Below are positions 12,185 to 54,315 of a DNA stretch of 64,000 nucleotides, piece by piece. The stretch lies in the NCBI RefSeq assembly GCF_013315695.1, contig NZ_CP054353.1; one strand, given 5' to 3'. The translations under genes and the position numbers were made by a program. Position 1 is the first letter of the stretch; every line of letters begins with the position of its first letter. The stretch is from Escherichia coli (lineage in GTDB: Bacteria > Pseudomonadota > Gammaproteobacteria > Enterobacterales > Enterobacteriaceae). The notes below the pieces were generated by a model that searched no databases, was not told where the DNA came from, and saw nothing but the letters and a program-made list of their open reading frames with translations.

Positions 12185-13185
12185 TAATAATAGACCGGAC
12201 GAAATCCCCCCGGTGACAGCGAGCGGCGGATATGTTCGCGGTCGGCATTTTTCGGCGTCAGAACTAAAATCGGTGGGCTGACATTATCAGACACCGATTG
12301 CCCCTGTAATTGCCTGATGGCCTGCTCAACCGCCAGTTCCCCCTGCCAGACCATTTGATCGCTGGCAGCCATAATCACTCTTCCCCGCTTCAGCCCGCGA
12401 TACACCTGATGTGAAAGATAAAACGACACCACGGTAAGCGGTGTTTTCAGGTTACGCCCTTCCCCCATTGCCGCCTCTGCCGCAATGGCCGTTCCGGCAA
12501 CGACGTCGATTTCTGGATGGCGCTCCAGCATCTCCTGCAACAGGTTACGCTGGATTTCAATATCGTTATCACCGAGCGCAATATCAACAATACGTACCGG
12601 ACTTCCGGCAATGGCTGCGCGAAAACCCTCTACCATCTCCTTACTGCCCCCGGCGTTATCGGGGCCGGGCATCAACAGCACGTTCAGTGGTTTACCGTGC
12701 GCCCATTGCACCAGATATCGCCCTGGTTGATAGCCCATCTGAAACCAGGGCACACCAACGCGGCTTTTCATCTGGGGAGCATCAATAGCATTCACCAGTT
12801 CGATCACCGGCAGATTTGCTACCTGCTTTTGCAGATCGGGAAATGACGTCGTGCTACTACCGAGCAAAATGGCCTCTGCGCCCCACTGTTTACACTGGTC
12901 GATTTGTGCTTGCTGCGTAGCCAACTGGCTGTAGCCGCCTGCCTCCAGCACTTTTAAATCCACACCGTAGCGGCGAGCAGCCTCCTGCATACCATAGTTC
13001 AACGATAACCAGTATGAATCTTTCAGGCTGGGATAAAGCGCGCACAGTTTCCATGCGCGTTTGGCTTTAAGCGGCGTAGAGGCTTGCACCGTGTAATGCT
13101 GCGCATCATGCCAGCGCAACAGGTTATCAGCCGAAAATGCCGATAACATGAAAAGGGAAAGAAGTAACAATAGCAGTACGCGCAT
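12157..13185 (-). CDS. torT: Periplasmic TMAO-binding sensor partner
   Basis: 342-aa ORF with signal peptide and periplasmic binding protein fold; 28-bp 3' overlap with torR. Confidence 0.93.
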
Positions 13186-18270: not shown

Positions 18271-18483
18271 TTGTCCCGTAAAATGACAGGAATTGTCAAA
18301 ACCTTTGATCGCAAAAGCGGCAAAGGATTCATTATCCCCTCCGACGGTCGTAAAGAAGTCCAGGTCCATATTTCCGCATTCACTCCCCGCGACGCAGAAG
18401 TGCTTATACCAGGATTACGCGTGGAATTTTGCCGCGTAAATGGCCTGCGAGGACCAACAGCGGCAAATGTTTATTTGTCTTGA
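18271..18483 (+). CDS. cspH: CspA-family protein CspH
   Basis: 70-aa [29 protein letters not shown]..., TTG start; divergent from cspG. Confidence 0.9.
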
Positions 18484-19781
18484 TGGAGAGCGCACGCTGG
18501 TATGCGTGCTTCATTCACGATTTGCGTAAAACCTGCCAACGAACACATGCCCTGCGCATTTCGCTCTTCACATCCTGCCAGGGTCAGTTTCACCTCTCCG
18601 GGCGGCGTATTTAATGACAGCGGCGTTTTATCACGCATCTGCTGTAAAGTCTGGAAGACCAGCGAAACCTGAATCCAATGGCTGTTATCGCTTAGCCTAC
18701 GCCAGCGTTCAAACACCAGTTCCCCCCCTGGCGGTGTGTTATCCGGCTGACCTGGAAGCGTCCAGTTGAGCTCCAGTGCGCCGCCGAGATTTGCCAGATT
18801 AGTATCGTGTCCGGCGATAAACAGCACTGAAGTGGGTAATGTCACACCATACACCTGTTTTTGCAGTGGATGGGGCGTCAACGCTGTCATGATCAAATCC
18901 AACAACGGGGTGGCGCGGCTGCGGGCAACCTCTGGCGTGCGTTGTAGCAAATAAAACTGCGCGTTATGCAGGCTTAGCAAGGTGTTCCACTGGTGTGAAT
19001 CGGTGATCCTTCCCCACCCCGGCTCCGGCATTCCCTGTGCTTGTTGCAGGAGAAATATCTCCGTAAGCATTGACGCTAGGCTTACCGCACCGGTTAATGA
19101 GACATTGTCGGCGCTCACCTTGAGTTCCGATGGTAATGCCTGCGTTAATGAACAGCTTTCGTCCTGTTTCTCACGGTTAAGGCACAAGTTTGATTGCGGA
19201 AAATTAAGCACCCGTTCCAGTTCGCGAAACGCCGTTTGCCGATGCCCGGTAAAGTCAGCAATTGACCCTCCTGCCCTGCTGAGGATCGCGTCAGTCACGT
19301 TCGCATTATCCAGTTGGCAAACGCCAGTTTTTAGAGGATTAAATAACGGATCGGGACTGGACGTATCTGCCTGGGTATGTACGGTTATTGCACAGTCAGG
19401 TGCCAGCCCGGCGGCGAAGGCTTCGCCTGTTTTACGGGTACGCTCGTCGACATCAGCAATAATCGCGACCTGACCAGGCTGCGGGCAGCCCTTTTTCGCC
19501 AGCAATCCGTCAGCCACCAGACGCTGGCGTTGGTAATGTCCAAGATAAGCGATTAGCTCACCACCGCGCGGTGTCAGCCAACCCAGTTTTACCGGCCAGG
19601 TTGGCCATGCGTCTGGGGTGACATCCTGCATCAGTTGCGTGGCCTTGGTTGGAGCACGCACACCATGACGACTGACAATCACCACACTTTCCAGCTTCAG
19701 CTCCGGCTCACTCTGAGCGAATGCAGATTGCGGGGTGAACGGAATCAGAAGAGATAAGAATGGGATTAAGATCGCTTTCAT
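18471..19781 (-). CDS. appA: Periplasmic phytase / acid phosphatase AppA with a variant C-terminus
   Basis: Start at [22 protein letters not shown] signal peptide; RHGVRAP active-site motif; ends ...[13 protein letters not shown]; 3' end overlaps cspH by 13 bp. Confidence 0.93.
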
Positions 19782-29732: not shown

Positions 29733-30062
29733 ATGCTGATCTTCGAAGGTAAAGAGATAGAAACGGATACCGAAGGCTATCTCAAAGAAAGCAGCCAGTG
29801 GAGTGAGCCACTGGCGGTGGTGATTGCAGAGAACGAAGGGATTGCGCTGTCGCCAGAACACTGGGAAGTGGTGCGTTTTGTGCGTGATTTCTATCTGGAA
29901 TTCAATACTTCTCCGGCGATTCGTATGCTGGTAAAAGCGATGGCGAATAAATTTGGCGAAGAGAAAGGCAATAGCCGCTATCTGTACCGACTGTTCCCGA
30001 AAGGTCCGGCAAAGCAAGCCACCAAAATTGCTGGCCTGCCTAAACCGGTAAAATGCATTTAA
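29733..30062 (+). CDS. tusE: Sulfur relay protein TusE (DsrC-like)
   Basis: 109-aa ORF ending ...GLPKPVKCI. Confidence 0.93.
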
Positions 30063-30337
30063 CGGATACGAAAATCCGTTAACTCCCCGGAGGGATGATG
30101 CGGCTCGCTAAGCACCCGTTCCACACGCGCTGAACGCGGGCCGCCACTTTTTAACCACTGCATTAATTTTTCCACCTGCCCTTCTTCACCGCAGGCAACC
30201 ACTTCCACGCTGCCATCGTCAAGATTTTTGGCGTACCCGGTTAGTCCCAGTTTTTTCGCTTCGTACTGCGTGGTGTAGCGGAATCCTACGCCCTGAACTC
30301 GCCCGTAAACCCAGGCAATTATGCAGACTTTCGACAT
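30059..30337 (-). CDS. yccX: Acylphosphatase
   Basis: 92-aa product [21 protein letters not shown]...; ORF-track start is an upstream extension. Confidence 0.9.
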
Positions 30338-35930: not shown

Positions 35931-36052
35931 GACTCTGTAGATCCACACGAAATGATTTCTTATCAGTGTAACCGTCAGAGAAAACGTGCTCCAGCCCAAA
36001 AAAACGTTACAATTGCCGCCCATTACTGAAAACCACAGTAAAGCGAGGTTTT

Positions 36053-36499
36053 ATGCGTACCGTTTTGAACATTCTGAACTTTGTGCTTGGCGGATTTGCC
36101 ACCACTCTGGGCTGGCTGTTGGCGACTCTGGTCAGTATTGTGCTGATTTTTACCTTACCGCTGACACGATCCTGCTGGGAGATCACTAAACTGTCTCTGG
36201 TGCCTTATGGCAATGAAGCTATTCATGTCGATGAACTGAACCCGGCTGGCAAAAATGTGCTGCTGAATACTGGCGGTACGGTATTGAATATTTTCTGGCT
36301 GATTTTCTTTGGCTGGTGGTTATGCCTGATGCACATTGCAACGGGCATCGCACAATGTATTTCCATCATTGGCATTCCTGTCGGCATTGCGAACTTTAAA
36401 ATTGCCGCTATTGCACTATGGCCGGTCGGTCGTCGCGTGGTATCGGTAGAAACAGCGCAAGCTGCGCGTGAAGCCAATGCACGTCGTCGTTTTGAATAA
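36053..36499 (+). CDS. yccF: Inner membrane protein YccF
   Basis: 148-aa hydrophobic ORF. Confidence 0.9.
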   Translation: MRTVLNILNFVLGGFATTLGWLLATLVSIVLIFTLPLTRSCWEITKLSLVPYGNEAIHVDELNPAGKNVLLNTGGTVLNIFWLIFFGWWLCLMHIATGIAQCISIIGIPVGIANFKIAAIALWPVGRRVVSVETAQAAREANARRRFE

Positions 36500-36517
36500 T
36501 CCACTAATATGGCCTTT

Positions 36518-38671
36518 ATGCTAAGTCCTTTGCTCAAACGCTATACCTGGAACAGCGCCTGGCTGTATTACGCGCGTATTTTTATTGCGCTTTGTGGAAC
36601 CACAGCGTTTCCGTGGTGGCTGGGTGATGTAAAACTGACGATTCCGCTGACGCTGGGGATGGTGGCAGCGGCGCTGACCGATCTCGATGACCGACTGGCG
36701 GGACGTTTGCGTAACCTCATCATTACGCTGTTCTGCTTTTTTATCGCCTCGGCCTCAGTAGAACTGCTGTTTCCCTGGCCCTGGCTATTTGCGATTGGCT
36801 TAACGCTCTCAACCAGCGGCTTCATTTTGCTCGGCGGTCTGGGTCAACGCTATGCAACAATTGCCTTCGGTGCGTTACTGATCGCCATTTACACTATGTT
36901 GGGGACGTCACTGTATGAGCACTGGTATCAGCAGCCGATGTATCTGCTGGCCGGTGCCGTCTGGTACAACGTCCTGACACTTATTGGTCATCTACTGTTC
37001 CCGGTCCGCCCGCTGCAGGACAACCTGGCGCGTTGCTATGAACAACTGGCGCGTTACCTTGAGCTCAAGTCGCGCATGTTTGATCCTGATATTGAAGATG
37101 AAAGCCAGGCACCGTTGTACGATTTGGCTCTCGCCAACGGTCAGCTGATGGCGACATTGAATCAGACGAAACTCTCGCTGCTGACCCGCTTACGTGGCGA
37201 TCGTGGTCAACGGGGAACGCGTCGCACGCTGCATTATTACTTCGTCGCGCAGGATATTCACGAGCGTGCCAGCTCTTCTCATATTCAGTATCAAACATTG
37301 CGTGAACATTTTCGCCACAGCGACGTGCTGTTCCGTTTTCAGCGGCTGATGTCGATGCAGGGCCAGGCGTGCCAGCAACTGTCACGTTGTATTTTGTTGC
37401 GTCAGCCTTATCAACATGATCCGCATTTCGAGCGCGCTTTTACGCATATTGATGCTGCGCTGGAGCGGATGCGCGATAACGGCGCACCTGCCGATTTACT
37501 CAAAACACTGGGATTTTTGCTGAACAATTTACGCGCCATTGATGCCCAACTGGCAACAATTGAATCAGAACAGGCCCAGGCACTGCCCCATAATAATGAC
37601 GAAAATGAGCTCGCTGATGACAGCCCGCACGGATTGAGTGATATCTGGCTGCGTCTTAGCCGTCACTTCACGCCGGAATCCGCCCTCTTCCGTCATGCGG
37701 TAAGAATGTCGCTGGTGTTGTGCTTCGGCTACGCCATCATTCAGATAACCGGAATGCATCACGGGTATTGGATCTTGCTGACAAGTTTGTTTGTCTGCCA
37801 GCCAAACTATAACGCCACGCGCCACCGCCTGAAGTTAAGGATTATTGGGACGCTGGTCGGTATCGCCATTGGCATTCCTGTGCTGTGGTTTGTACCGTCA
37901 CTGGAAGGGCAACTGGTGCTACTGGTTATTACCGGCGTGCTCTTTTTTGCCTTCCGTAACGTGCAATACGCCCATGCAACGATGTTCATCACACTTTTGG
38001 TGCTACTTTGTTTTAACTTGCTGGGTGAAGGTTTTGAAGTGGCGTTACCTCGCGTAATCGATACGCTGATTGGTTGTGCCATTGCGTGGGCGGCGGTGAG
38101 CTACATCTGGCCTGACTGGAAGTTTCGCAATCTGCCGCGCATGCTCGAACGTGCCACCGAGGCCAACTGTCGCTATCTCGATGCCATACTGGAGCAATAC
38201 CATCAGGGGCGTGATAACCGTCTGGCGTATCGTATTGCCCGCCGCGATGCACACAACCGTGATGCCGAACTGGCGTCGGTGGTATCAAATATGTCCAGCG
38301 AGCCGAACGTTACCCCGCAAATTCGCGAGGCCGCGTTTCGGTTGCTGTGCCTTAACCATACGTTTACCAGCTATATCTCAGCCCTCGGTGCTCACCGGGA
38401 GCAGTTAACTAATCCTGAAATTCTGGCGTTTCTTGATGACGCAGTTTGCTATGTTGATGGCGCGTTACATCATCAACCTGCTGATGAAGAACGCGTCAAT
38501 CAGGCATTAGCTGGCCTGAAACAGCGGATGCAGCAACTTGAACCACGGGCAGACAGCAAAGAACCTCTGGTCGTACAACAAGTTGGGTTATTGATTGCAT
38601 TACTGCCAGAGATTGGTCGTCTGCAACGCCAGATTACTCAAGTTCCGCAGGAAACTCCTGTTTCGGCGTAA
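36518..38671 (+). CDS. yccS: Inner membrane protein YccS (fusaric-acid-resistance-like family)
   Basis: Polytopic membrane protein of about 717 aa; start chosen at MLSPLLKRYTW. Confidence 0.9.
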   Translation: MLSPLLKRYTWNSAWLYYARIFIALCGTTAFPWWLGDVKLTIPLTLGMVAAALTDLDDRLAGRLRNLIITLFCFFIASASVELLFPWPWLFAIGLTLSTSGFILLGGLGQRYATIAFGALLIAIYTMLGTSLYEHWYQQPMYLLAGAVWYNVLTLIGHLLFPVRPLQDNLARCYEQLARYLELKSRMFDPDIEDESQAPLYDLALANGQLMATLNQTKLSLLTRLRGDRGQRGTRRTLHYYFVAQDIHERASSSHIQYQTLREHFRHSDVLFRFQRLMSMQGQACQQLSRCILLRQPYQHDPHFERAFTHIDAALERMRDNGAPADLLKTLGFLLNNLRAIDAQLATIESEQAQALPHNNDENELADDSPHGLSDIWLRLSRHFTPESALFRHAVRMSLVLCFGYAIIQITGMHHGYWILLTSLFVCQPNYNATRHRLKLRIIGTLVGIAIGIPVLWFVPSLEGQLVLLVITGVLFFAFRNVQYAHATMFITLLVLLCFNLLGEGFEVALPRVIDTLIGCAIAWAAVSYIWPDWKFRNLPRMLERATEANCRYLDAILEQYHQGRDNRLAYRIARRDAHNRDAELASVVSNMSSEPNVTPQIREAAFRLLCLNHTFTSYISALGAHREQLTNPEILAFLDDAVCYVDGALHHQPADEERVNQALAGLKQRMQQLEPRADSKEPLVVQQVGLLIALLPEIGRLQRQITQVPQETPVSA

Positions 38672-39263
38672 GAGAGTCAGCCCATTCTGCAAGCTCCTGG
38701 CGGCGTGCCACCGGGAGCGCAGCTTCATGAATGCCGATAATGGCCCCTTCAAGCATAAACAGAATCTTTTCTGTCACCAGACTGTTTTGCTGCCGCAGTC
38801 GCAACCAACACATTTTTGCCCCAAGTATACGTAACGCCCGTACATCCTTAATCCCCACCTCCCCGAGAATCGCTTCCAGATGAAAAGACATATTGGGCAA
38901 ATCTTTCAGTCTTTCCCGGGTATTGCGCGTGCTTTTCTCTTTCAGCGCTGCATCGAGAGAATATTTCGACAGACGCACCAGCTTCAGTTGATTTCGCCAT
39001 AGACTTTCATCAACTCGATAGTAATTGAGGGTAACGGATCGGCCACACTTTTTATATGTCAGCCAGACAGGCGGATGTTTTACACAGTACTGTGCACTTT
39101 GCTCACAAGCCCGAAGATACAACTCACCATCAGAAACCATCGCAAACACCGTGTCGTCAACGGTCAGGCTGTAACTGCCAAACAATGATCGGTATTCAAT
39201 TGTGCCCAACGTTGCCAGGTATTCTTGTGATTTATAGATCCGCTTATAGGAGAGGCTTTTCAT
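38634..39263 (-). CDS. sxy: Competence regulator Sxy/TfoX
   Basis: 209-aa ORF MKSLSYKRIYKSQEYLATLGTIEYRSLFG...; 38-bp convergent overlap with yccS. Confidence 0.93.
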   Translation of the reverse strand: MKSLSYKRIYKSQEYLATLGTIEYRSLFGSYSLTVDDTVFAMVSDGELYLRACEQSAQYCVKHPPVWLTYKKCGRSVTLNYYRVDESLWRNQLKLVRLSKYSLDAALKEKSTRNTRERLKDLPNMSFHLEAILGEVGIKDVRALRILGAKMCWLRLRQQNSLVTEKILFMLEGAIIGIHEAALPVARRQELAEWADSLTPKQEFPAELE

Positions 39264-39439
39264 AAAATTCCTTTTAAAATCATAACATAAAAGAATGATT
39301 CACATTAACGGATCCGTTAACTACGAAAATAGGCAACTTATTCTTAAGGGGCAAGATTAATTTATGTTTTCCCGCCACCAACGACAAAATTTGCGAGGCT
39401 CTTTCCGAAAATAGAGTTGATCTTTGTCGTCACTGGATG

Positions 39440-39459
39440 TACTGTACATTCATACAGTA
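39440..39459. promoter_or_regulatory. LexA operator (SOS box) of sulA
   Basis: tactgtacattcatacagta, a perfect CTGT-N8-ACAG palindrome 23 bp upstream of the sulA ATG. Confidence 0.9.
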
Positions 39460-39481
39460 ACTCACAGGGGCTGGATTGATT

Positions 39482-39991
39482 ATGTACACTTCAGGCTATG
39501 CACATCGTTCTTCGTCGTTCTCATCCGCAGCAAGTAAAATTGCGCGTGTCTCTACGGAAAACACTACAGCCGGGCTTATCAGTGAAGTTGTCTATCGCGA
39601 AGATCAGCCCATGATGACGCAACTTCTACTGTTGCCATTGTTACAGCAACTCGGTCAGCAATCGCGCTGGCAACTCTGGTTAACACCGCAACAAAAACTG
39701 AGTCGCGAATGGGTTCAGGCATCTGGGCTACCCTTAACGAAAGTAATGCAGATTAACCAGCTCTCCCCCTGCCACACCGTGGAGTCAATGGTTCGCGCTT
39801 TACGCACGGGCAATTACAGCGTGGTGATCGGTTGGTTGGCAGATGATTTGACTGAAGAAGAGCATGCTGAACTTGTTGATGCGGCAAATGAAGGTAACGC
39901 TATGGGGTTTATTATGCGTCCGGTAAGTGCATCCTCTCACGCCACGAGACAACTTTCCGGGCTAAAAATTCACTCTAATTTGTATCATTAA
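39482..39991 (+). CDS. sulA: SOS cell-division inhibitor
   Basis: 169-aa product [32 protein letters not shown]... Confidence 0.95.
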
Positions 39992-40214
39992 GTAAATTTA
40001 GGATTAATCCTGGAACTTTTTTTGTCGCCCAGCCAATGCTTTCAGTCGTGACTAATTTTCCTTGCGGAGGCTTGTGTGAAGCGGTTTCCGCGATTTTCTT
40101 CTGTAAATTGTCGCTGACAAAAAAGATTAAACGTACCTTATACAAGACTTTTTTTTCATATGCCTGACGGAGTTCACACTTGTAAGTTTTCAACTACGTT
40201 GTAGACTTTACATC

Positions 40215-40347
40215 GCCAGGGGTGCTCGGCATAAGCCGAAGATATCGGTAGAGTTAATATTGAGCAGATCCCCCGGTGAAGGATTTAACCGTGTTATCTC
40301 GTTGGAGATATTCATGGCGTATTTTGGATGATAACGAGGCGCAAAAA
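40215..40347 (+). promoter_or_regulatory. ompA 5' untranslated leader (about 133 nt), known Hfq/MicA target
   Basis: Sequence from gccaggggtgctcggcataagccgaagatatcgg to the ATG matches the remembered ompA leader. Confidence 0.75.
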
Positions 40348-41400
40348 ATGAAAAAGACAGCTATCGCGATTGCAGTGGCACTGGCTGGTTTCGCTACCGT
40401 AGCGCAGGCCGCTCCGAAAGATAACACCTGGTACACTGGTGCTAAACTGGGCTGGTCCCAGTACCATGACACTGGTTTTATTCCTAACAATGGTCCGACC
40501 CACGAAAACCAACTGGGTGCAGGTGCTTTTGGTGGTTACCAGGTTAACCCGTATGTTGGCTTTGAAATGGGTTACGACTGGTTAGGTCGTATGCCGTACA
40601 AAGGCGACAACATCAACGGCGCATACAAAGCTCAGGGCGTTCAGCTGACCGCTAAACTGGGTTACCCAATCACTGACGATCTGGACATCTACACTCGTCT
40701 GGGTGGTATGGTATGGCGTGCAGACACCAAGGCTAACGTACCTGGTGGCGCATCTTTTAAAGACCACGACACCGGCGTTTCTCCGGTTTTCGCTGGCGGT
40801 GTTGAGTACGCGATCACTCCTGAAATCGCTACCCGTCTGGAATACCAGTGGACCAACAACATCGGTGACGCACACACCATCGGTACTCGTCCGGACAACG
40901 GCATGCTGAGCCTGGGTGTTTCCTACCGTTTCGGTCAGGGCGAAGCAGCTCCAGTAGTTGCTCCGGCTCCAGCTCCGGCACCGGAAGTACAGACCAAGCA
41001 CTTCACTCTGAAGTCTGACGTTCTGTTCACCTTCAACAAAGCAACCCTGAAACCGGAAGGTCAGGCTGCTCTGGATCAGCTGTACAGCCAGCTGAGCAAC
41101 CTGGATCCGAAAGACGGTTCCGTAGTTGTTCTGGGTTACACTGACCGCATCGGTTCTGACGCTTACAACCAGGGTCTGTCCGAGCGCCGTGCTCAGTCCG
41201 TTGTTGATTACCTGATCTCTAAAGGTATCCCGGCAGACAAAATCTCCGCACGTGGTATGGGCGAATCCAACCCGGTTACTGGCAACACCTGTGACAACGT
41301 GAAACAGCGTGCTGCACTGATCGACTGCCTGGCTCCGGATCGTCGCGTAGAGATCGAAGTTAAAGGCATCAAAGACGTTGTAACTCAGCCGCAGGCTTAA
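40348..41400 (+). CDS. ompA: Outer membrane protein A, 350 aa, non-K-12 loop allele
   Basis: Signal peptide [21 protein letters not shown], beta-barrel, APAPAPAP hinge and C-terminal OmpA domain; loop segments GDNING and [14 protein letters not shown] differ from K-12 as remembered. Confidence 0.97.
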
Positions 41401-52666: not shown

Positions 52667-53776
52667 GTGGCGACATTAACCCGGCTTTTTATTCATCCTG
52701 TTAAATCGATGCGCGGCATTGGTCTTACACATGCTCTGGCAGATGTCAGTGGTCTGGCCTTCGATCGCATCTTTATGATCACGGAACCTGACGGTACGTT
52801 TATTACTGCTCGCCAGTTTCCCCAGATGGTACGGTTTATTCCTTCACCTGTGCATGATGGCTTGCATCTCACCGCACCAGATGGCAGTAGTGCATATGTT
52901 CGTTTTGCTGATTTCGCCACACAAGACGCACCAACCGAAGTTTGGGGCACACATTTTACCGCGCGAATTGCGCCAGACGCGATCAACAAATGGCTAAGTG
53001 GATTTTTCTCCCGCGAAGTGCAATTACGCTGGGTGGGGCCACAAATGACCCGGCGCGTGAAACGCCACAACACTGTACCCCTGTCATTTGCTGATGGTTA
53101 TCCTTACCTTCTTGCTAACGAGGCCTCGTTACGTGATCTCCAACAACGTTGTCCGGCCAGTGTAAAAATGGAGCAATTCCGCCCCAATCTGGTGGTTTCC
53201 GGTGCATCGGCCTGGGAAGAAGATAGCTGGAAAGTGATTCGCATTGGTGATGTCGTGTTTGATGTGGTTAAGCCTTGTAGCCGCTGTATTTTCACCACCG
53301 TCAGCCCAGAAAAAGGGCAAAAACATCCGGCAGGCGAACCATTAAAAACGCTGCAATCTTTCCGTACTGCCCAGGATAACGGCGATGTCGATTTTGGTCA
53401 GAATTTAATTGCCCGTAATAGCGGCGTGATTCGCGTTGGCGATGAGGTGGAAATTCTGGCAACGGCTCCAGCTAAAATTTACGGCGCAGGTGCCGCCGAT
53501 GATACTGCCAACATCACGCAACAACCGGACGCAAACGTAGATATTGACTGGCAGGGACAGGCATTTCGTGGAAATAACCAACAGGTGCTGCTGGAGCAAT
53601 TAGAAAATCAGGGAATTCGTATCCCTTATTCTTGCCGCGCGGGCATTTGTGGAAGTTGCCGTGTTCAGCTTTTAGAAGGCGAAGTCACGCCGCTGAAAAA
53701 ATCAGCAATGGGTGATGATGGCACTATTCTTTGCTGTAGTTGTGTACCGAAGACTGCACTTAAGCTGACGCGTTAA
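52667..53776 (+). CDS. ycbX: MOSC-domain protein with C-terminal 2Fe-2S ferredoxin domain
   Basis: 369-aa ORF; C-terminal CRAGICGSC...CC motif. Confidence 0.92.
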
Positions 53777-54315
53777 ACTGCCTGTTCGAGGCTGAAGCTG
53801 TCAACATTAACCTGCGGTTTCAGCCTGTCGTTCATGATTTTGATGGCGTCGCCCAGCTGCATCGCGCGACCCGCAATAACAACGCAGGGTTGTGCCAGCA
53901 GGCATAGTGCGGCATTTTCGCCAGATTCAACGACCAGCAAATTGACTTGCTCGTGAGTGTCGCTCAACCAAACGCAGGCCGCATCGCCCGGCATGGGCAC
54001 CCACATTTCACCATGGGAAACAAAATGCCAGCTTTTCGGCATTTGCGGTTTGAGATAACGAATTGCTACCAGCGCATTAAGCACCAGTTCGGCTTTTTGT
54101 TCTTTAGATAAATTAAAATCGCGGCATTTTTCTTCAAATGAGAAATAGAGCGCGGCGTCGTCAACGCAAAAGCCTGCGGGAGAAAAGGCATCTGGAGTCA
54201 ACATTTTGCGCGCAAAACGTGAGCGAAATAGCATACCATTGGCTAAATCGAGCATCATTCGATCGTGCTCTTCATCGTAATACCAACGCCAGTTATCGTC
54301 TGGTTTAATTCGCAT
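53773..54315 (-). CDS. zapC: FtsZ-associated cell division protein ZapC
   Basis: 180-aa product [24 protein letters not shown]...; 4-bp convergent overlap with ycbX. Confidence 0.92.

Follow-up and report, generated by a model that had tools for sequence, protein, structure and literature searches.

Convergent coding overlap of yccS and sxy in Escherichia coli as a probable product of gene packing

Convergent overlaps in the window

The window, a stretch of 64,000 nt, is a part of an Escherichia coli chromosome. The RefSeq annotation was taken from the near-identical genome NZ_OZ547117.1, which matches window positions 37000-40000 exactly and differs from the window at only five positions before approximately 61.6 kb. 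Five pairs of convergent genes share coding 3' ends here: yccS (plus strand, 36509-38671) and sxy (minus strand, 38634-39263) overlap tail-to-tail by 38 bp at 38634-38671; torR (plus, 11492-12184) and torT (minus, 12157-13185), by 28 bp at 12157-12184 (1057262-1057289 in K-12); cspH (plus, 18271-18483) and appA (minus, 18471-19781), by 13 bp at 18471-18483; ycbX (plus, 52667-53776) and zapC (minus, 53773-54315), by 4 bp at 53773-53776 (1006491-1006494 in K-12); and tusE (plus, 29733-30062) and yccX (minus, 30059-30337), by 4 bp at 30059-30062. Both 4-bp overlaps have the sequence TTAA, and the stop-codon bases alone are held in common.

An earlier note on this DNA had listed the first four pairs, and the ORF listing, direct translation and the RefSeq annotation agree on all four; its statement that the window contains several such overlaps also holds, tusE/yccX being the fifth pair, which it had missed. 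In each pair the stop codons lie inside, or share bases with, the ORF of the partner. All ten proteins have strong Pfam matches and orthologs in many genera, and their ORFs are intact, without internal stops. Annotation artefacts as the source of the overlaps were considered and ruled out: both genes are well supported, and the 3' overlaps are set by the stop codons alone, so that the choice of start codons cannot alter them.

Five of the 13 convergent CDS junctions in the window overlap, versus five of approximately 50 in K-12, the latter counted in eight 50-kb samples (400 kb) and not in the whole annotation (Fisher test, p ~0.02). This cluster exceeds chance only nominally: the p-value is post hoc, and a genome would be expected to contain approximately 0.5-3 windows of 64 kb like this one. 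The lengths of 4, 4, 13, 28 and 38 bp fall within the range of 4-129 bp seen for convergent overlaps in the K-12 samples.

The cspH/appA pair varies among strains. In K-12, cspH and appA are approximately 9 kb apart, with etk-etp-gfcEDCBA and IS1 between them, and AppA ends with PACSL, versus PACALHQDK in the window. Among 5426 complete genomes of E. coli, 1674, about one-third, have the contiguous cspH/appA junction. The absence of cspH-appA from the published list of MG1655 excludons (see below) is explained by the fact that this junction does not exist in K-12.

Conservation of the yccS/sxy overlap

The yccS gene, the second gene of the yccF-yccS operon, encodes a FUSC-like putative transporter of 720 amino acids as annotated, whose last Pfam match (FUSC-like, FUSC_2 and FUSC being found) ends near residue 685. 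The sxy (tfoX) gene encodes the 209-amino-acid coactivator of the CRP-S regulon, in which TfoX_N covers residues 14-106 and TfoX_C residues 116-194, the last 15 residues being outside the domain. The shared segment 38634-38671 comprises the last 12 codons of each gene (TQVPQETPVSA and stop in YccS; TPKQEFPAELE and stop in Sxy) and is not covered by the Pfam domains of either protein. The TAA codon of yccS (38669-38671) is located within sxy, and that of sxy (38634-38636, TTA on the plus strand) within yccS. The sequence of the overlap is identical in K-12 MG1655.

The arrangement of yccS and sxy is found in 5425 of 5426 E. coli genomes, and the genes overlap at each of the 24 enterobacterial loci that were compared (Escherichia, Salmonella, Citrobacter, Intestinirhabdus, Enterobacter, Lelliottia, Yokenella and Leclercia), with overlap lengths from 4 to 47 bp and dissimilar tails. 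The junction can be aligned without gaps in 20 of 22 sequences. Pairwise identity in the overlap is 0.48, the lowest value at the junction, against flanking values of 0.63-0.73. In the flanks, the periodicity of coding sequences is seen, with identities of 0.83/0.91/0.43 at codon positions 1/2/3 of yccS and 0.71/0.78/0.43 of sxy, and the overlap shows no codon periodicity in either frame (0.42/0.54/0.47). The low identity and the lack of periodicity indicate that the overlap behaves as a nearly neutral spacer of approximately 40 bp read from both sides.

These values bear on the possibility that the overlap is a selected dual-coding segment, in which each C-terminal tail has a function and the overlap is kept for the sake of both or for DNA economy. 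Double purifying selection of this kind predicts an overlap at least as conserved as its flanks at all codon positions, whereas the observed identity is at the level of third positions in both frames; moreover, the tails vary in sequence and length between genera and lack Pfam domains. The presence of the overlap in every lineage examined is in line with dual coding, as is the loss of activity upon C-terminal truncation of Sxy, but the sole stated length of such a truncation is 37 residues, which cuts into TfoX_C and is uninformative about the last 12 residues of Sxy. The dual-coding reading is already disfavored, and we regard it as extremely unlikely.

Next, we considered how often such an overlap would arise by chance. 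When the flanks were fixed and the 38-bp spacer was shuffled, 89% of trials still gave an overlap, and in 59-79% it was 38 bp or longer. Thus, an overlap is the chance expectation for genes packed so closely. The observed overlap lengths are below the median of this null model, which suggests mild selection against long extensions.

The yccS/sxy overlap is, in our opinion, most probably a passive product of gene packing and not a designed element. The conserved cores of YccS and Sxy end approximately 40 bp apart, and the length of this scaffold is fixed across Enterobacteriaceae. The spacer between the cores is free of protein-level constraint, and each reading frame crosses it until the first stop codon. 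The yccS stop codon is usually antisense to the semi-conserved Leu-Thr codons of Sxy, while the position of the sxy stop codon wanders; an overlap of variable length, from 4 to 47 bp, results from one stop being mostly anchored and the other one drifting.

A separate observation concerns the number of overlapping loci: 24 of 24 is slightly more than the 0.89 per lineage given by shuffling. This counts against a passive origin, and weakly so, since these are not independent lineages and conserved sxy codons contain the yccS stop codon.

Structures around the junction

As no intergenic DNA separates yccS and sxy, neither operon is able to terminate between the genes, and each transcript must end inside the partner gene. 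A scan for consensus promoters and terminators found neither at the junction, in Yokenella as well, and yielded two weak terminator hits elsewhere. The combination expected of an intrinsic terminator, a GC-rich hairpin with an immediate U tract, is absent from the junction. The overlap itself contains a small E. coli-specific hairpin on the plus strand (GCAGGA-AAC-UCCUGU, 38647-38661), which is followed by UUU only and is not a canonical terminator (predicted dG -8.9, z -0.96). The possibility of hidden structure conservation in the hypervariable spacer was rejected, as no consistent structure was seen in 14 lineages (mean z -0.5 and -0.7). A search of 36000-40500 against Rfam at a permissive threshold produced nothing relevant, with one chance match to a snoRNA (E = 0.5).

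A conserved GC-rich stem-loop, GCTCCTGG-N10-CCGGGAGC, is located on the plus strand at 38693-38718, 22 nt downstream of the yccS stop codon and within sxy codons ~183-191. It is followed by GCAGCUUCAU and not by a U tract. RNAalifold predicts a consensus structure with invariant stems; 12 of the 14 lineages have folding energies of approximately -20 to -28 kcal/mol, the mean z being -2.9 on the plus strand and -2.2 on the minus strand, and in the window the energies on the two strands are -20.3 and -22.8 kcal/mol. In Leclercia the stem-loop is weak, and Yokenella lacks it. At five synonymous third positions of the stems, 12 lineages show no variation, this being the best of 432 nine-codon windows (corrected p ~0.03). 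Covariation does not reach significance, as its score was attained in 104 of 500 shuffles, and hence the invariance of synonymous sites is the sole argument for the structure. The stem-loop is a candidate 3'-end hairpin of the yccFS mRNA, with a putative protective or pausing role; alternatively, it may act in the sxy mRNA or in DNA binding.

Further downstream, the RNA that is sense for yccS and antisense for sxy contains a C-rich, G-poor stretch at 38752-38871 (plus strand), with 41 C versus 17 G over 120 nt (C/G 2.4, GC skew -0.35 to -0.39) and a peak C/G of 4.5 at 38832-38871. This stretch is rut-like and may be a zone of Rho loading and termination. On the opposite strand, no comparable C-rich stretch was found downstream of sxy, and RNAalifold detected no conserved structure beyond the sxy stop codon in the sxy-sense RNA (consensus -5 kcal/mol). 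The conserved stem-loop and the C-rich stretch inside sxy, both predicted from sequence, are the new detail of this analysis.

From these features we infer Rho-type termination of yccFS. Ribosomes would be released at 38671, and the RNA would then fold into the stem-loop at 38693-38718; Rho would load on the C-rich stretch at approximately 38750-38870 and terminate transcription, and exonucleases would trim the transcript back to the stem-loop. This would leave the 3' end of sxy covered by approximately 50-240 nt of antisense RNA. The sxy transcript would have diffuse ends inside yccS, as may be expected because no conserved structure was found there.

The same stem-loop could also be viewed as a bidirectional terminator of the collision type proposed by Ju, Li and Liu, which would position head-on collisions of RNA polymerases and end both operons with neither Rho nor a U tract being required. 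Published collision terminators lie between convergent pairs, differ from intrinsic terminators, are Rho-independent and require a stem-loop in the nascent RNA (bioRxiv 10.1101/2022.10.23.513370), and the absence of a U tract together with stability on both strands would suit such an element. However, both sides would have to be transcribed frequently for this mechanism to work, and in laboratory culture sxy is essentially silent (PMC3330819). Besides, the stem-loop is part of the translated sxy ORF, so that ribosomes would unfold it in the sxy-sense RNA, and Rho is a better match for the C-rich stretch downstream on the yccS-sense strand. A collision terminator at this site is therefore very improbable in our estimation.

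Transcript overlap and possible regulation of sxy

The earlier note also claimed that transcription of one gene must run antisense through the other. This is correct and unavoidable by geometry: a full-length mRNA contains its own stop codon at the far edge of the overlap, so that a complete yccS mRNA and a complete sxy mRNA share 38 nt or more of complementary sequence. The situation that the note had offered as a refutation, termination inside the overlap with no antisense RNA produced, cannot occur with functional mRNAs.

Published transcriptomics concur. The overlap of transcripts is already known for sxy-yccS, torT-torR, zapC-ycbX and yccX-tusE, which ExcludonFinder reported among 165 convergent excludons of MG1655, sxy-yccS being found in 50% or more of 58 transcriptomes (NAR 2025; PMC12288877). 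Complementary 3' ends arise from 75% of convergent E. coli operons according to Conway et al. (2014, mBio; PMC4161252), who drew the sxy and yccFS operons as converging. Two Rho termination regions from PMC7815308, placed by us relative to zapC and torT using K-12 gene coordinates, lie within partner genes in the antisense orientation: 1006040(-), approximately 450 nt into zapC downstream of ycbX, and 1056830(-), approximately 430 nt into torT downstream of torR. The Term-seq and BCM tables of the same study (Adams et al.) contain no 3' end and no Rho region at K-12 1021400-1021999, and no entry for sxy/yccS.

A regulatory effect on sxy is plausible as a hypothesis. In its strongest form, the pair would be a functional convergent excludon, in which transcription that runs from yccFS into sxy, or in the opposite direction, has been selected as a device for mutually exclusive expression, and sxy is kept off by colliding RNA polymerases and/or by RNase III cutting the 3' duplex. 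The place of sxy-yccS in the MG1655 excludome speaks for such a device, as do the near-universal presence of the arrangement in E. coli and its conservation across genera, and the stem-loop with constrained synonymous sites at the point where the yccFS RNA enters sxy. An unrecognized repressive layer is conceivable, given that no natural inducing condition is known for E. coli sxy (PMC3330819), and mscL-arfA, with an overlap of 4 bp, has a reported antisense function (PMC10070815). Excludon pairs in general show higher synteny, which the authors of PMC12288877 read as functional linkage; this, too, counts against a passive origin.

However, pairs with overlapping CDSs automatically satisfy the coverage criterion of ExcludonFinder once both genes are expressed, and hence the listing is not evidence of regulation; capture of dsRNA with p19 failed to validate convergent excludons in general (PMC12288877). 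The overlapped sequence is unconstrained. Antisense repression increases as the antisense promoter gets stronger, and approximately 85% of head-on collisions are survived by RNA polymerases on translated mRNA (PMC4731013); yccFS is not known as a strongly transcribed operon. The literature on sxy considered here, including PMC3330819, credits its control to CRP/CRP-S and a stem-loop in the 5' part of the mRNA, with antisense RNA not mentioned. Our literature search found no paper tying sxy control to antisense RNA, and no experiment or data set on mutual repression in the five overlapping pairs. We consider a selected excludon unlikely, and any repression of sxy via complementary 3' ends is probably weak.

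A narrower proposal is that read-through from yccF-yccS, metered by the stem-loop at 38693-38718 and Rho, acts as a physiological antisense brake that helps to keep sxy, and through it the competence (CRP-S) regulon, silent in the laboratory; if so, shut-off of yccFS or changed Rho activity would license sxy induction. We hold this to be a quite doubtful, speculative option.

In summary, gene packing accounts best for the yccS/sxy overlap, and the view that the coding overlap is special, or matters for sxy, is not supported. The convergent overlaps considered here are an ordinary, already catalogued by-product of tight packing. As it stands, they matter little, since they are routine in compact bacterial genomes and the pairs, with the exception of cspH/appA, are in a published catalogue. 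The useful outcomes are negative ones: the yccS/sxy overlap is unconstrained, and as such should not be read as a regulatory device, and cspH/appA is merely a strain-specific junction. The sole lead with possible upside is the conserved stem-loop with the C-rich stretch in the 3' end of sxy. If this element sets the 3' end of yccFS, it would define the extent of antisense RNA over sxy and may offer a concrete way to approach an old question, namely why induction of E. coli sxy is never seen in the laboratory.

Comparison with known systems

The mscL-arfA pair resembles yccS-sxy in having a convergent CDS overlap (4 bp in K-12) and complementary 3' RNA ends, but of the two only mscL-arfA has an experimentally reported antisense role (PMC10070815). 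Four of the five pairs of the window are themselves named among the MG1655 excludons; most excludons, however, overlap in 3' UTRs, with a mean intergenic distance of 95 nt, whereas the window pairs overlap in coding regions (PMC12288877).

For the predicted yccFS 3' end, the closest relatives are the Rho-dependent 3' ends of Dar and Sorek (2018; PMC6061677), whose account of this class describes protective stem-loops without a U tract and rut sites just downstream. Here, a stable stem-loop without U-rich sequence likewise comes soon after the yccS stop codon, and is followed by a C-rich, G-poor stretch that resembles a rut region as a compositional match only. The candidate yccFS element differs from that class, as described there, in lying inside the CDS of a convergent gene and in being predicted from sequence.

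The overlap itself is best compared with the prokaryotic tail-to-tail overlaps that Kingsford, Delcher and Salzberg (2007, as presented in PMC3887535) attributed to random 3' extension of a gene to the next stop codon. As in that class, the 3' ends are common to two bona fide genes of opposite orientation, and a shuffling null model reproduces the overlap. There is no essential difference; the observed overlaps are shorter than the null median.

Convergent overlaps in the window

Coding sequences overlap at 5 of the 13 convergent junctions in the window, a stretch of E. coli chromosome. Four of these overlaps had been reported in the earlier note and are confirmed, since the ORF listing, translation and RefSeq annotation agree: yccS (plus strand, 36509-38671) with sxy (minus strand, 38634-39263) by 38 bp, torR with torT by 28 bp (12157-12184), cspH with appA by 13 bp (18471-18483), and ycbX with zapC by 4 bp (53773-53776). 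The fifth pair, tusE/yccX (4 bp, 30059-30062), was absent from that note. Both 4-bp overlaps read TTAA, so these genes share nothing but stop-codon bases.

The 38-bp yccS/sxy sequence is identical in E. coli K-12 MG1655 (K-12; 1021730-1021767), and of 5426 complete E. coli genomes, 5425 carry segment 37000-40000, to which the annotated E. coli genome NZ_OZ547117.1 is a 100% match. The annotated start of yccS (36509-36517) varies by record, giving 720 aa by PGAP in this near-identical genome and 717 aa in the calls for K-12, Salmonella and E. fergusonii, and has no bearing on the 3' overlap. The window is collinear with NZ_OZ547117.1 to about 61.6 kb; from 61629 onward (to 64000) there are 1770 position mismatches, and this loss of collinearity, near elfA/ssuE, would fit either an indel or a variable segment.

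The cspH/appA overlap is strain-variable and not fixed in the species, the contiguous junction being found in 1674 of 5426 complete genomes. In K-12, about 9 kb (the etk-etp-gfcEDCBA group 4 capsule genes and IS1) lie between appA and cspH, and appA is followed by an obvious intrinsic terminator; at the window junction neither this terminator nor the intervening genes are present, and AppA ends in ...PACALHQDK versus ...PACSL in K-12.

For comparison, eight 50-kb samples of K-12 contained 5 overlaps among about 50 convergent CDS junctions (yrdA/yrdB, 25 bp; mscL/arfA, 4 bp; two pairs in prophage e14; ymgM/cvrA). The difference from 5/13 (Fisher p ~0.02) is nominal and post hoc, since with a background of 10-16% from 0.5 to 3 windows of equal size per genome are expected to reach this value.

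Overlap of the transcripts

As a stop codon is obligatory in a full-length mRNA, any complete yccS mRNA shares a complementary stretch of at least 38 nt with a complete sxy mRNA. Termination inside the overlaps, which the earlier note had regarded as an escape from antisense RNA, cannot remove this complementarity, for the same reason.

Published data show opposed transcripts at several of these junctions. The pairs sxy-yccS, torT-torR, zapC-ycbX and yccX-tusE (the published name of tusE/yccX) belong to the MG1655 excludome, a list of gene pairs with overlapping opposed transcripts (excludons), being among the 165 convergent excludons found by ExcludonFinder in at least 50% of 58 MG1655 transcriptomes (PMC12288877). 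Such a listing is not independent evidence of regulation, because pairs with overlapping CDSs, once both genes are expressed, always pass the coverage criterion. Conway et al. observed complementary 3' ends, with a mean of 286 nt, from 276 of 370 convergent operons (PMC4161252). Bicyclomycin data of Adams et al. place one Rho termination region at K-12 1006040(-) and another at 1056830(-) (PMC7815308), the former about 450 nt beyond the ycbX stop and antisense within zapC (window ~53780-54230), the latter about 430 nt beyond the torR stop and antisense within torT (window ~12190-12620). Antisense RNA in zapC and torT reaches far past the 4-bp and 28-bp coding overlaps. The tables of that study hold no entries for sxy or yccS; low expression of both genes under the conditions used is one possible explanation. 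Conway et al. also reported a stationary-phase antisense transcript across sulA (PMC4161252). The sulA gene (window 39482-39991) is located upstream of sxy, and this transcript would share the sxy strand and could read into sxy.

A candidate 3' end of yccFS

The terminator scan identified no canonical intrinsic terminator at the yccS/sxy junction, and a small hairpin within the overlap (38647-38661) is weak and E. coli-specific. A GC-rich stem-loop with no U tract, GCTCCTGG-N10-CCGGGAGC, is situated at 38693-38718, 22 nt after the yccS stop and within sxy codons ~183-191. All 11 aligned genera have identical stem sequences, and folding energies range from -20 to -28 kcal/mol in 12 of the 14 lineages; mean z is -2.9 on the yccS-sense strand versus ~0 in control segments. 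Five synonymous third positions in the stems are invariant across 12 lineages, and no other of the 432 nine-codon windows holds so dense a cluster (corrected p ~0.03); covariation was tested and was not significant. In Yokenella the stem-loop is lost and a different hairpin folds nearby.

The stem-loop is followed on the yccS-sense strand by a C-rich, G-poor stretch (38752-38871; C/G = 2.4, peak 4.5). Together they resemble the architecture outlined by Dar and Sorek for mRNA 3' ends that depend on Rho, in which a protective stem-loop lacking a U tract is closely followed by a rut site (PMC6061677). To judge from sequence, this looks like a Rho-type 3' end of the yccF-yccS operon (yccFS) embedded in sxy: Rho would halt yccFS transcription within about 100-240 nt of its entry into sxy, and trimming would then shorten the RNA as far as the stem-loop. 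On the opposite strand, beyond the sxy stop, neither a conserved structure nor a C-rich stretch was found, which suggests that sxy 3' ends are probably diffuse.

Consequences for sxy

That the overlap matters for sxy, a competence regulator, is possible but unsupported. The papers on sxy control that were consulted credit CRP/CRP-S and a 5' mRNA stem-loop, state that E. coli has no known natural inducing condition, and make no mention of antisense RNA. In a synthetic quantitative study, stronger antisense promoters gave more repression by antisense transcription, and about 85% of RNA polymerases on translated mRNA survived head-on collisions (PMC4731013). The ExcludonFinder authors reported that dsRNA capture failed to validate convergent excludons (PMC12288877). 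We consider it very improbable that sxy is truly held back by read-through from yccFS, with the conserved stem-loop and Rho acting as the gate. Of the earlier interpretation, the geometry holds and so does transcript overlap, given the published lists and the position of the stop codons, while a special role of the overlap does not.

Conservation and origin of the yccS/sxy overlap

The Pfam domain TfoX_C ends at residue 194 of 209 in Sxy and the last FUSC match ends at about 685 of 720 in YccS, so the overlap falls within the C-terminal tails of both proteins. It is present in all 24 loci compared, one per genome (Escherichia spp., E. albertii, E. fergusonii, Salmonella, eleven Citrobacter-type loci, Intestinirhabdus, Enterobacter, Lelliottia, Yokenella and Leclercia), with lengths of 4, 11, 14, 20, 23, 32, 35, 38, 41, 44 or 47 bp, and the tails that it encodes are unrelated across genera. 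A 276-bp low-coverage contig of an Alkalicoccobacillus porphyridii assembly, NZ_VLXZ01000190.1, also encodes a fragment that shares 99% identity with Sxy of E. coli; this is almost certainly E. coli contamination.

The junction alignment is gap-free in 20 of 22 sequences, indicating that the length of the scaffold is fixed and the stop codons alone shift. Among 14 lineages, mean pairwise identity is only 0.48 in the overlap, against 0.73 in yccS and 0.63-0.71 in sxy. Identities at codon positions 1/2/3 show classic periodicity in yccS (0.83/0.91/0.43) and sxy (0.71/0.78/0.43) and none in either frame of the overlap (0.42/0.54/0.47). Low identity and the lack of periodicity imply that the overlapped DNA evolves at approximately the synonymous-site rate. 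By these measures it acts like a ~40-bp spacer separating conserved cores, apparently translated from both sides by happenstance.

When the spacer was shuffled with the flanks fixed, the ORFs overlapped in 89% of trials, with a null median of 71-104 bp, longer than the observed overlaps. The yccS/sxy overlap is thus ordinary, and it is already in a published catalogue. Its behavior is that expected under the model of Kingsford et al., as summarized in PMC3887535, in which 3' ends extend randomly to the next stop, with mild trimming of long tails in addition.
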